In this document: piece by piece, positions 60,001 to 64,000 of the stretch
How positions within the stretch are numbered: the stretch's first letter is position 1
How the letters are laid out: each line of letters opens with the position of its first letter
Source of the DNA: Escherichia coli
Lineage (GTDB): Bacteria; Pseudomonadota; Gammaproteobacteria; Enterobacterales; Enterobacteriaceae
Assembly (NCBI RefSeq): GCF_003991155.1
Contig: NZ_CP031293.1
DNA length: 64,000 nucleotides
Direction: 5' to 3' (one strand)
Program-made: the position numbers

Positions 60001-63000
60001 ATTTACCGTGGTATCCGTGGCCGTATCACCGGCGTTCAGCGTGAATGAACTGCCTTTTTCCAGCATCAGGGCATCCGCCTGACCGCCTCCGATACTGAAT
60101 GCCTTTCCGTCGCTCCGGGTACCACTGACAGCGGCACCGGAATCGGCCAGCAGTACACCGCCATTTCCCATGGATACGGTGGTGGCGGTACCACCGTTGC
60201 GGACATCCAGCGTTCCGCCATCATCCACGCGGGTATTAGTGGCTGTGTGTCCGGTCAGCACATCCAGGCGTCCGCCATTTTCCAGTACGACATTATCAGC
60301 TTTACCCTCCACAACCGAGAATGCTCCAAGGCGGTTTATGCCGGTAACGGTTGCAGCCGTACTGGTAACCAGTGCACCGCCCGTGTTCTGGGTGACTGCA
60401 GTGGCTTCCCCGCCGGCATGTACCCTCAGTTCACCGTTCTGATTAACGGTGGTGTTACCGACAGCACCACCTGCCTTAACAACCTGCCAGCCCCCCTCGT
60501 TAATTACCGTGTTCAGCGCAAGTCCGTCCTTGTGCACATACTGGTAACCGCCATTCAGTGTGGTATTCAGGGCCCTTCCGTGTACCGACTGGTCACCACC
60601 TGCGTAAATGAGAGTGTCACGGGCTATCCCGGAAAATAAGATAATCTGCCGTCCATTTTTGTTGATGGTGGTGGATTCTGCTGTTCCCTGGACCTTCTGA
60701 CCCGTGTACGAGTTGTCAGAATCCGGGCCGCCTTCTGCGCCGGTGTTGATGATGGTTCCTGTTGCCAGCCCGCCACTTTTAACGCTCTGGTAACCGTCGC
60801 GGTTGATAATTGTACCGGTGGCAACCCCGCCCTCATGAACCCACTGCTCGCCTCTGTTATTCAGCGTGGTGTTCACCGCCAGCCCGTTCAGGCTCTGTCC
60901 CCCGCCGTCACGAATAACCGTATCACTGGCTGTTCCCCCCTCCAGCACGACCTGACGACCATTTGTGGTAACAGTGGTGTTTCCGGCTATCCCGCCATTC
61001 TGTATCCATTGCCCACCGGTGTTTTCTTCACTGTCCGGCCCCAGTTCCAGCCCGGTACTGATGGTCATTCCGTTGGCCGTACCGAGGACAATCTGGTTGT
61101 CATGATTTTCCAGTGTTCCGCCGTTCACGGTTTCACCTGCCTGTACAATACTGTCAGCAGCCAGGGCCGGGACTGACGTGACAGCAGCAAGAGACAGAGC
61201 AACCGCCACACCGGCGCCTTTTCCCCGTGAGCGGGCCAGTTCGGAGGCCACCACCAGGGTGCCCGTAATGTGATTCCATACCAGCCTGTAGCTGGTGTTC
61301 AGATGTCGTTTCATCAGCTTTTCCTTACAGAGGGTGAATAAAAAAGCCGGTACCCACAAATGTGGATACCGGCAGGTACAAAACAGCATGGTCAGATAAA
61401 GTGGTTTTTCCCGGACATAAATGCTTCCCCTCTCTCATCCGCCAGAGAAGTATCAGTCCGTTGTGTGCAATTCCGTTCTGCATGATGAAGAGATTCAGCT
61501 GCCTTTTCGCAGGCCATTAACCACTATAAACGATCGATATCAGCGATCGATACCTGTTTTATCGATCGTTTTATTCTATTGATAGCAGGGCGGTCACGCA
61601 AGAGAAACAGGAGGGTATGAGGGGGTTGTGTCATGTTTTCAGTTTGTTAATGCAATATAATCAGGCATTTCCCCTGGCAGAGTGTTCAGAAGAAAATCCA
61701 GTTCCATACAGCGCGGGCAACAGAGACCACCGAGTCACGGACGGCACGCAGAACCGTGCGTGCAACAGAGGCAATACAGACGCTCTCCGCCGTGTCAAAT
61801 ATCCGGTCCACCGCACCGGTAAACTGTTCACGGGCCTGAGACCGGACAGATTCCGTGCGCAGCTCGTCCTGCAGTCGGGTCATCAGGGGACTGGCGGCAT
61901 GGTCGGGAAGCGCTGTCATGAGCGCACTGACCAGCGTATCCAGTTCCCAGCCGGTGCGGGCCGATACGGCCACAACCGGATGTACGGGCCGGAACAGACG
62001 GAATACCGCCTCCGTTTTTTCGCGAATATTCTGTGCCTGTGCAGGAGAAGGCTGAATACCGGCCATATCCCATTCATGGCAGGGCTCCGTTTTGTCGGCC
62101 TGCGTCACCACAAACAGTACCCGCTGATGTCCCCGGTGCAGGATGTGTCGCCAGAAATACTCATCCACAGACAGGGCACGGTCATCGGCTTTAATCAGCC
62201 ACAGTACCAGGTCCAGTTCAGGCAGAATGTCACGGTACAGGGCCTCATACTCTGCATCCCTGTCCCGGCTCTCGCCCACCCCGGGCAGGTCAGTGATAAC
62301 CATGCTGTGACCGTGGCCACTCAGACGGAAGTGCCGTACTTCCCGGGTGCCGGCGTGAACATCACTGACCGGGGTGACCTCCCCCTGAAACAGTGCATTA
62401 CAGAGTGAGGATTTACCGGCCCCGCTTTTACCCATAATGCCAATCACGGGTTCGTGACGGGTGAGTTTGCGCAGATGTTCCAGGATGTGACGGGAAAGCG
62501 AGTAAGGCAGGGAGGAGAGCGGTTTTTCAATTGCCTCAATGGCATCAGACGGATTCATACATGTATTCCCGGTGAAAAAAGACAAAACCCCGCGCACCGG
62601 AAAGGTGGCGGGGGATTCACGGAGATAATATCTGTCTGAAATTGTTTTGAATCGATGGGATTGTTGCGTATTAACATGAAGGAGATCAGGACTTATCCGT
62701 TACTGGGTGATCTCCTTCCATGAAAATACGCCGTTATTGTTAAACAGCAGGCTGATTTCTCCGTAAAGGGGAAAATATTTATCGGCTGCATGATTATCAG
62801 GTGTGTCTGTGTTTACTGCTGTGAGTATTTTTCAGTGTATTGTGGGGGAGATGTCAGTGGGAGATATTAAATTTACGTTTATAATTATCTTACTTCTTCT
62901 GTGTGTTTTTTATAAGAGTGCACACGTAATGATATCTGTTGATACCATGTGGTTAAGTGTTTCCCTTCCTGGTCATGCGTAATGATTAAATGCTTTTGTG

Positions 63001-64000
63001 ACACCATTCTTCCGGTCTGAATATTTATCCCGTTCTTTTTTATTTGTGCAGTGATACTGTCGGAAGAGAATTCAGTAATGTGAGGTGTCCTGGTCAGGAT
63101 AATATCTGCTGAGATATTATTAGTTGAGTATGTTTTTACTGAGCAAAAGCTGGCTTTTAATTCCTGTACTGAAACGCTGTCGCTCGTCCGGGGTTAACTG
63201 AAACTGGATGATGATGTAAAATGAAGGCTGTTTTTGTGTTTGTCGAAGAAGTGTTATTTTAATCCATTCTCATCATTGGCTGGCGATTATACAGAAGTAT
63301 TTGAAGAAAAAATGGTGCATTTTATCTGCGTCAGCAGGGAGGAAGTATTTTATTGATGTATCAGTATTAAATGGTTTTTGTTATTTATAAATATGTCATC
63401 CTGTCCATAGAATATTGTACTCAGCATTCAGTGCAGGAACTGTAGTCTTCTTTATTTTATTCTTCTTCAGGAGGGGGTGATTCCTGAAGGCGTTATTCCC
63501 GGTGTTCTGTTTATGATTCTTCCCGGCAGGAAACCGGTATCTGCAATACCCGGGATGATGCTTTTTGTTCGTACGTGGTTGTGTAAAATTTGAATAGTGG
63601 ATGTGCTCTGAAGGGAAGGAGGGGACACACAGATTCATTTTGTCTTTCTTCAGCAGCAAAACACACTGTGGTTATTATTTAACCATTAAATCAACAAAAA
63701 TTTTTACCTCATATTGATTTGACTGCTATTTTTGCTATTAATAGCCAGAATTGCAGTGCTTTTATATCTGTGTGTAGTGAGGTTACTATGTCATTCGGTC
63801 AGCCTTGTGATGAGTTTCCCCTGAGTTCGCTGCCTCCACTCATTCGTGATGCCGTTATTGAAGCTCAGCAAATTACGCAGGCTCCCCTTGGGCTTGTGGC
63901 AGCGTCTGCCCTGGGCGCTGTTTCACTTGTCTGCCAGAATCTGATTGATGTCTGCAGACTGAATACACTGCGGGGGCCGGTCTCTCTTTTTTTCCTGACG

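Follow-up and report, generated by a model that had tools for sequence, protein, structure and literature searches.

An AT-rich divergent intergenic region between a GTPase gene and a yfjI-family gene in an Escherichia coli island: conserved ends around a probable spacer

The promoters of ykfA and yfjP in Escherichia coli K-12 (TTGAAA-15-TATCAT) are RpoD-holoenzyme sites by genomic SELEX (systematic evolution of ligands by exponential enrichment) and were classed as constitutive (Shimada et al., 2014, PMC3946193); this promoter table apart, the literature on yfjP, ykfA and yeeP offered little. In Pseudomonas aeruginosa, AlpA (PF05930) uses an element between the -35 and the -10 and bypasses intrinsic terminators located just upstream of the first open reading frame (ORF), one of which begins 26 bp past the transcription start (PMC7969949). 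DUF3987 marks the primase of satellites with an int-alpA-primase module, and deleting one such primase gene lowered the circular copy number (PMC10803314). Here we analyze an AT-rich interval that lies in a 64,000-nt stretch of an E. coli genome (contig NZ_CP031293.1, hereafter the window), between a GTPase gene homologous to ykfA and yfjP and a divergent yfjI-family gene that encodes a DUF3987 protein, on an island that also carries an AlpA-family gene. Our favored reading of this interval, to which we give a probability of about 0.7, is a divergent intergenic region without coding function, located beside the kps capsule locus in the backbone of a CP4-57-like island and comprising three functional zones: a GTPase promoter and leader, an AT-rich central body, and a yfjI promoter with a palindrome.

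The interval and its two conserved ends

A sequence-only reading of the window had described a non-coding interval at 62598-63786. The interval itself stands, but both of its ends have to be moved. The GTPase gene starts at ATG 62558 (MNPSD...) according to the NCBI annotation of NZ_CP027461 (E. coli 95-3322), a record identical to the window across the interval, and not at GTG 62597, and this ATG is the start conserved among the E. coli alleles compared. The GTG start of the mechanically called GTPase ORF would place the leader hairpin described below within coding sequence. With the yfjI ATG at 63788, the true intergenic region is 62559-63787, or 1,229 nt. It was rightly described as AT-rich with homopolymer runs: its G+C content of 0.381 is lower than that of the whole window (0.50) and of the flu and GTPase genes beside it (0.55-0.63), and 14 runs of at least 5 nt (the longest being 6) are found where shuffled sequences have 6.5 ± 2.5 (p ~0.006), about twice the shuffle level. 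Some 9.5% of equal-sized windows are equally or more AT-rich, most of them in kps region 2.

Seven alleles from four lineages (the window, Nissle, 103605 and MSI001 types) were aligned, with identities down to 70%. All seven keep the same layout, in which 1.18-1.33 kb separate the GTPase gene from the divergent yfjI. The whole interval is present at a coverage of at least 80% in ~1,860 of 5,426 complete E. coli genomes, the central body alone in 1,906, and the first ~100 nt at the GTPase end in 4,243; among the matches listed, no annotated feature lies beneath the full-length interval or the central body. Because the layout occurs in ~1,860 genomes and in four lineages up to 30% apart, it represents the usual organization of this family of islands and not a recent deletion scar. 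Conservation across the four lineages is high at 62559-62658, followed by a presence/absence gap at 62659-62738, moderate patches over 62739-62939, a low stretch at 62940-63500, a moderate one at 63504-63600, and again high values at 63632-63790. The earlier suggestion that the interval is the promoter region of both flanking genes is borne out for its two ends (~62559-62651 and ~63696-63787), but not for the ~1 kb between them.

Within the leftmost ~95 nt of the interval, the predicted sigma-70 promoter of the GTPase gene lies on the minus strand at 62625-62651 and is single-copy in the window. It consists of a -35 TTCAAA (62646-62651), a 15-nt spacer ACAATTTCAGACAGA and a -10 TATTAT (62625-62630), with a predicted transcription start near 62618. 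Judging by its sequence, it is the same promoter as that found upstream of K-12 ykfA and yfjP, and holoenzyme binding is known for these K-12 paralogues. Along the minus strand the -35, spacer and -10 are followed by CTCCGTGAAT, a hairpin CCCCGCCACC-TTTCC-GGTGCGCGGGG, a T-tract TTTTGTCTTTTTT, 16 nt and the ATG. The hairpin (62588-62613) and T-tract (62575-62587), which a terminator scan reported together at 62575-62613 on the minus strand, resemble an intrinsic terminator: the stem has 10 bp, 9 of which are G-C pairs, and the T-tract ends 16 nt before the GTPase start codon. The 71-nt leader as a whole (62555-62625, minus strand) folds at -26 kcal/mol (z -3.1).

We compared 16 leaders of GTPase homologues that share 50-100% protein identity, taken from E. 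coli alleles, K-12, Mangrovibacter, Serratia, Yersinia, Klebsiella, Erwinia, Xenorhabdus, Cronobacter, Hafnia, and viral or metagenome contigs. The spacer AATTTCAGACAGA and the -10 are nearly invariant across this set while the -35 is variable. A GC hairpin and then a T-tract occur 10-25 nt past the -10 in 15 of the 16 leaders, with energies of -10.6 to -23.9 kcal/mol and at least six unrelated stem sequences. As these unrelated stems were out of register in a plain MAFFT alignment, the latter was unusable for RNAalifold, and the leaders were realigned with a covariance model instead. Over the ten stem pairs, 79% of cells were paired (67% in shuffles) and 17 cells had changed on both sides (8.8 in shuffles), values that none of 500 shuffles reached in either case, although the pair counts are inflated by an alignment fitted to the model structure. 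The covariation score was 0.307 as compared to 0.144 in shuffles, again with 0 of 500 as high, and slid-partner controls gave 0.07-0.14.

What lies upstream of this promoter-leader module varies between loci (rnlB, perR, a hypothetical gene, IS66, defense-like genes, or nothing), which argues that the box and the hairpin belong to the GTPase gene. With only ~16-30 nt left between the T-tract and the start codon, this anatomy puts the promoter upstream of the terminator-like element, so that GTPase transcription would have to pass through it. The GTPase promoter and the leader hairpin are conserved across the sequences compared, and the hairpin probably acts as an intrinsic terminator. In such a case the leader RNA would fold almost immediately into a GC hairpin with a U-tract, just before the ribosome-binding site, and transcripts from the GTPase promoter, together with read-through from upstream, would for the most part end at this point, except where the terminator leaks or is overridden. 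The hairpin would then hold GTPase expression low or conditional.

At the opposite end, an A5T5 tract (63696-63705) and a -35-like TTGATT (together 63696-63717, plus strand) belong to a putative yfjI promoter and are invariant in 7 of 7 alleles. In the window, the invariant AAAAATTTTT and TTGATT precede a 36-bp palindrome, ACTGCTATTTTTGCTATTAATAGCCAGAATTGCAGT, at 63722-63757. This inverted repeat contains four GCTATT-type half-sites (GCTATT, GCTATT, AATAGC and AATTGC; chance expectation 0.1 per window), and its center, TGcTATTAA, forms an extended -10-like element 16 nt from TTGATT. The palindrome, which can be written TGCTATTTyyGCyATTAATAGCrrAATAGCA, is conserved 35-70 nt upstream of the DUF3987 gene in 14 aligned loci including K-12. 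It is found before yfjI homologues of ~50% identity in Dickeya, Pectobacterium, Brenneria, Siccibacter, Kluyvera, Mangrovibacter, Citrobacter, Erwinia and the CP4-57 island of K-12, and loci that match the exact pattern have one copy each.

The -10-like center suggests an operator that overlaps the yfjI promoter. The rightmost ~130 nt of the interval would consist of the A/T tract and the -35 leading into a palindromic operator centered on the -10, and yfjI would be under the control of a dimeric regulator from the island that binds this operator. In 16 of 16 loci from other genera, alpA ends ~130 nt upstream of yfjI in the same orientation; in the window island, the AlpA-like gene is instead downstream of yfjI and on the opposite strand. 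The usual place of alpA is taken by the AT-rich kilobase, which indicates that the island was rearranged with a breakpoint just upstream of the yfjI promoter. To our knowledge, neither the promoter-proximal terminator of the GTPase gene nor the yfjI palindrome has been described before.

The central kilobase and the alternatives to a spacer

Between these ends lies an AT-rich central body (62742-63695) that has no shared ORF, no Pfam or Rfam match and no homologue in the related loci compared from other genera. A conserved protein-coding gene was looked for across the allele lineages and none was found, in keeping with the first impression that the interval holds no convincing ORF. Neither its longest ORF, of 87 aa, nor its longest run without a stop codon, of 102 aa, exceeds the range of shuffles of the interval sequence (p ~0.15; p 0.16 for the ORF), and Pfam searches with ten six-frame fragments gave no match above noise. 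The 87-aa ORF is the one that had been singled out on the minus strand at 63396-63659 as Lys/Asn-rich; it does exist, with a TTG start, 12 Lys and 11 Asn, yet its length is within that of shuffles and other alleles have 5-nt and 7-nt indels that disrupt its frame, so that it is a chance ORF and not a gene. More generally, indels of 1, 2, 5, 7, 29, 60 and 71 nt are frequent among alleles and do not preserve frame, and no ORF of at least 12 codons keeps its stop codon and frame in the four lineages, except an 18-codon ORF inside the GTPase leader. A hidden gene was rejected on the basis of the ORF list, the shuffles, the six-frame Pfam scans and the cross-allele ORF conservation, and a known small RNA on that of the searches of Rfam 15 over 60500-64000 at E-values up to 1, which left the interval empty and gave a single match outside it. 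Folding energies are unremarkable except at three structured spots, namely two hairpins and the palindrome.

Comparison with loci from other genera by blastn and tblastn returned matches only at query positions 1-62 (GTPase side), 66-134 (a hairpin) and 1125-1161 (yfjI side), so that at these loci nothing related to the central kilobase was detected outside E. coli. The interval diverges between alleles (Jukes-Cantor 0.13-0.26) about as much as the GTPase, yfjI and alpA-like genes do at synonymous sites (dS 0.09-0.31). We infer that the central body is most likely a dispensable, lineage-specific AT-rich filler that evolves at a near-neutral rate, tolerates indels and serves only as a spacer. 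It may also count among the foreign AT-rich sequences that are targets of silencing by H-NS and Rho.

Small insertions and deletions fit this picture of a dispensable filler. A ~70-nt hairpin element (62666-62735; -30 kcal/mol, z -5.5) with flanking ATTGTT direct repeats occupies 62660-62741, and in the 103605 and MSI001 alleles it is missing and a single ATTGTT is left. A total of 5,266 copies were counted in 2,716 E. coli genomes, and the element is also located just 3' of eaaC in phage P-EibC, where it is annotated as a stem_loop, and of cdtC on plasmid pVir68. Its sequence and distribution suggest either a small, mobile palindromic element or a portable terminator. The Nissle 1917 allele (L002) alone carries a 71-nt palindromic insert with GATCACGGTTTGGCCAAACCGTGATC after position 62977 that is absent even from a 98%-identical allele (L027); this insert has 5,933 occurrences in E. 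coli, with as many as 34 in one genome, and plasmids carry it as well. One allele has lost ~50 nt of the central body. In O157 only ~90 nt of the GTPase-promoter end of the interval are kept and in O111 ~530 nt, with IS66-family elements beyond.

Several observations nevertheless weigh against such a simple account, in addition to the inflated pair counts mentioned above. The length of the interval stays at 1.18-1.33 kb in four lineages despite a divergence of up to 30%, and the deletion bias of bacterial genomes makes such a kept length odd for pure filler. Three internal patches (62739-62835, 62861-62939 and 63504-63600) are better conserved than their surroundings. They include a 15-mer, TTCCCGGCAGGAAAC, at 63520-63534, which is invariant in the four lineages, even the one at 70% identity, and single-copy in the window and island. 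The plus strand has a strong excess of G over C and of T over A that is kept in every allele (GC skew +0.20 and AT skew -0.17 in the window allele; +0.18 to +0.20 and -0.14 to -0.21 across the seven). This is a keto (G+T) bias and not a purine bias, and the corresponding minus-strand RNA has more C than G in 97 of 115 80-nt windows. RNA that is rich in C and poor in G has the composition preferred by Rho. The H-NS motif TCGATAAATT, allowing up to two mismatches, is not enriched: the interval has 2 sites, and the window 76 with 67 expected.

The better-conserved patches at 62739-62939 and 63504-63600 could be explained if the central body held an unannotated gene for a small protein, a small RNA or an antisense RNA, and promoter-like hexamers on the plus strand and a stem, CTTCAGGA/TCCTGAAG, at 63465-63489 agree with this. 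We hold it to be improbable, given that no ORF of even 12 aa keeps its stop and frame in all lineages apart from the leader ORF, that Rfam gave no match at the permissive threshold, that the fold of 63440-63580 is unremarkable (z -0.7), and that the promoter-like sites are at chance level (5 as compared to 3.9 in shuffles). It is also doubtful, though less readily set aside, that the central 1 kb is the eroded remnant of one or more cargo genes once located between yfjI and the GTPase promoter; a decayed remnant had also been suggested by the sequence-only reading. The corresponding slot holds the cargo genes yfjJ, abpAB, yfjM and rnlAB in K-12, and in other genera a UvrD-type helicase, OLD-TOPRIM/AAA_15 genes, or an M78 peptidase with helix-turn-helix genes. 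In every other genus sampled, alpA immediately precedes the yfjI palindrome, which points to rearrangement of the window island, and satellite elements with int, alpA and a DUF3987 primase are reported to have non-coding regions with pseudogenes (PMC10803314). On the other side, no six-frame fragment matches Pfam or any related locus; searches for pseudogene remnants by tblastn and blastn against ~40 related loci matched the conserved ends and the hairpin only. The composition is keto-skewed rather than purine-skewed as coding strands are, and all four allele lineages are equally devoid of ORFs. Finally, the four hexamer half-sites of the palindrome, which adjoin an A/T tract, resemble arrays bound by certain viral initiators. 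Together with the role of the DUF3987 primase in satellites (PMC10803314), this raises the idea that the palindrome and the adjoining AT-rich DNA are a replication origin used by YfjI. We regard this as very unlikely: there is no family of direct repeats (iterons) with more than two copies and there are no tandem repeats, a single near-match to a DnaA box has a mismatch, no IHF core site was found, and AT-richness is the only feature that fits. Moreover, in K-12 and other genera the palindrome sits in the ~130-nt gap between alpA and yfjI without a long AT-rich tract, and yfjI is a pseudogene in some alleles.

A further proposal extends the promoter-spacer reading rather than contradicting it. 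An AlpA-family antiterminator encoded by the island could read the promoter spacer, load onto RNA polymerase and carry it past the leader hairpin into the GTPase and backbone genes. This is how P. aeruginosa AlpA, a protein of the same Pfam family, works (PMC7969949). The near-invariance of the spacer among homologues of 50-100% identity while the -35 varies speaks for such a mechanism, as does a hairpin with a T-tract that is kept in structure and not in sequence, and the island does have an AlpA-family gene (L001 12686-12892; PF05930, E 8.6e-9), as does CP4-57 in K-12. We nevertheless judge antitermination to be a tentative and rather doubtful addition. The window spacer is unlike the P. aeruginosa motif GGGACGN5GGTA, the AlpA-like protein of the island is merely 23% identical to K-12 AlpA, and the GTPase box occurs once per island, which leaves no second target to support a regulon; indeed, no second copy of the box, of the palindrome or of the invariant 15-mer was found elsewhere on the island. 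The K-12 promoters are constitutive by genomic SELEX, a method silent on read-through, and a leaky terminator damping a constitutive promoter would account for the same anatomy; we take the latter as the default. A scan of viral contigs with a degenerate pattern of the box returned almost solely chance matches in AT-rich phages.

The most far-reaching version of this idea, which we find unlikely, is that the GTPase gene at the head of the conserved backbone of CP4-57-like islands in Enterobacterales is switched by processive antitermination, with the 1-kb spacer as a one-way, Rho-dependent insulator. A constitutive promoter would then fire into a terminator ~6-45 nt downstream, and read-through would be licensed by an island protein of the AlpA family, or by some other factor, that reads the invariant promoter spacer. 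The 1-kb spacer, whose minus strand gives a C-rich, G-poor RNA, would be retained to shield the switch from transcription arriving from the regulatory module. Besides the GTPase gene, this backbone has Ag43 or Cah, genes for antirestriction and the CbtA/CbeA toxin-antitoxin genes.

Island context

The two genes that bound the interval are a GTPase family gene of the YfjP/YkfA/YeeP type (61686-62558, minus strand, 290 aa), which matches Pfam MMR_HSR1 and is annotated as "GTPase family protein" in NZ_CP027461, and the 5' end of the yfjI-family gene (63788-64000, plus strand), preceded by a Shine-Dalgarno sequence GAGG at 63779-63782. The full-length yfjI copy in locus L001 matches DUF3987 with an E-value of 1e-95; the yfjI-family product is 52% identical to K-12 YfjI, and a PDB sequence search with YfjI gave no match. 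In two loci, yfjI is annotated as a pseudogene through an internal stop or frameshift (L028 3535-5025 and L029 3582-5086), and the interval upstream is full length in both.

To the left of the interval, the minus strand encodes the GTPase, Ag43, a large hypothetical protein, IrmA, DUF905 and DUF932 proteins and, farther left, an antirestriction protein, a JAB/RadC protein, a DUF987 protein, YeeU and CbtA, before the kps capsule and gsp secretion genes are reached. To the right, yfjI on the plus strand is followed by a 200-aa gene and the AlpA-family gene, both on the minus strand, and then by Hha, a YagK/YfjJ protein and two zinc-ribbon proteins. From this gene order, the interval separates a regulatory and replication-type module of the island from its conserved backbone. 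The interval itself is ordinary: it is the non-coding divergent promoter and spacer DNA of a very common mobile island.

The sequence-only reading had also treated the GTPase gene and flu as one unit. This is probably too simple, because an IS102/isrC RNA match and the GATC-rich switch region of flu lie between them. The Rfam match to IS102/isrC, the only one in the region searched, is located between the GTPase stop codon and flu (61333-61569, minus strand; 74 bits, E 9e-12). It overlaps a GATC-rich palindromic region at 61531-61570 that resembles the known Dam/OxyR phase switch of Ag43.

Three further observations concern the surroundings and relatives of the island. The slot just upstream of the GTPase promoter looks like a hotspot for defense-type cargo bounded by the promoter-terminator module, as in K-12 (L026) and in loci L157, L160 and L161. 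An exact RfaH ops element, GGCGGTAGCGT, is found at 34842-34852 (plus strand) in the low-G+C kps capsule region, and none within the interval. The IME/PIME elements (bioRxiv 2026.01.12.698999) were considered as relatives and set aside, being a different kind of element.

The backbone headed by the GTPase gene is found in most E. coli, and its genes include those for Ag43 or Cah adhesins, antirestriction and CbtA-type toxins. The finding of a promoter followed by a structurally conserved, putative terminator from E. coli to Yersinia, Serratia, Xenorhabdus and Erwinia provides a concrete hypothesis of attenuation or antitermination for its control. The yfjI palindrome, conserved across genera, is likewise a candidate operator for the int-alpA-primase module common to islands and phage satellites.

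Comparison with described systems

The AT-rich island regions silenced by H-NS and Rho share several traits with the interval: it has a G+C content of 38% within an island, A/T tracts, a Hha-family gene nearby and a C-rich, G-poor RNA. A point of difference is that the TCGATAAATT motif is not enriched in the interval. The 70-nt hairpin resembles the palindromic repeats of enterobacteria that are akin to miniature inverted-repeat transposable elements (MITE-like), with its ATTGTT duplications, its empty-site alleles and its thousands of copies, and the 71-nt Nissle insert behaves likewise; unlike these repeats, neither matches a named family or Rfam.

The systems closest to the proposed antitermination are those of AlpA at the alpB and PA0807 promoters of P. 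aeruginosa (PMC7969949, PMC9371919) and of phage lambda Q at PR'-tR'. The window shares with them a conserved spacer sequence, a terminator-like element between the start and the first ORF, and an AlpA-family gene on the element. It lacks any resemblance to the GGGACGN5GGTA motif of P. aeruginosa, and its putative terminator begins only ~6 nt past the predicted start.

The nearest relatives are those of K-12 itself. In the alpA-yfjI region of CP4-57, alpA is located ~130 nt upstream of yfjI in the same orientation, whereas the window has a 1-kb AT-rich body and a divergent GTPase gene; the same palindrome, CTGCTATTTCCGCCATTAATAGCGGAATAGC, is nevertheless found there at the same distance from the yfjI start. 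Compared to the promoters of ykfA (CP4-6) and yfjP (CP4-57), each hexamer of the window promoter is one base off (TTCAAA and TATTAT), the sequence of the stem is unrelated, and where K-12 has rnlB or perR upstream, the window has 1 kb of non-coding DNA followed by a divergent gene. Across these differences, the homologous genes share the positions of the hexamers, the unusual 15-nt spacer and the box TTCAGAYAGATATYAT, and yfjP, like the window gene, has a hairpin and a T-tract ahead of its start codon.

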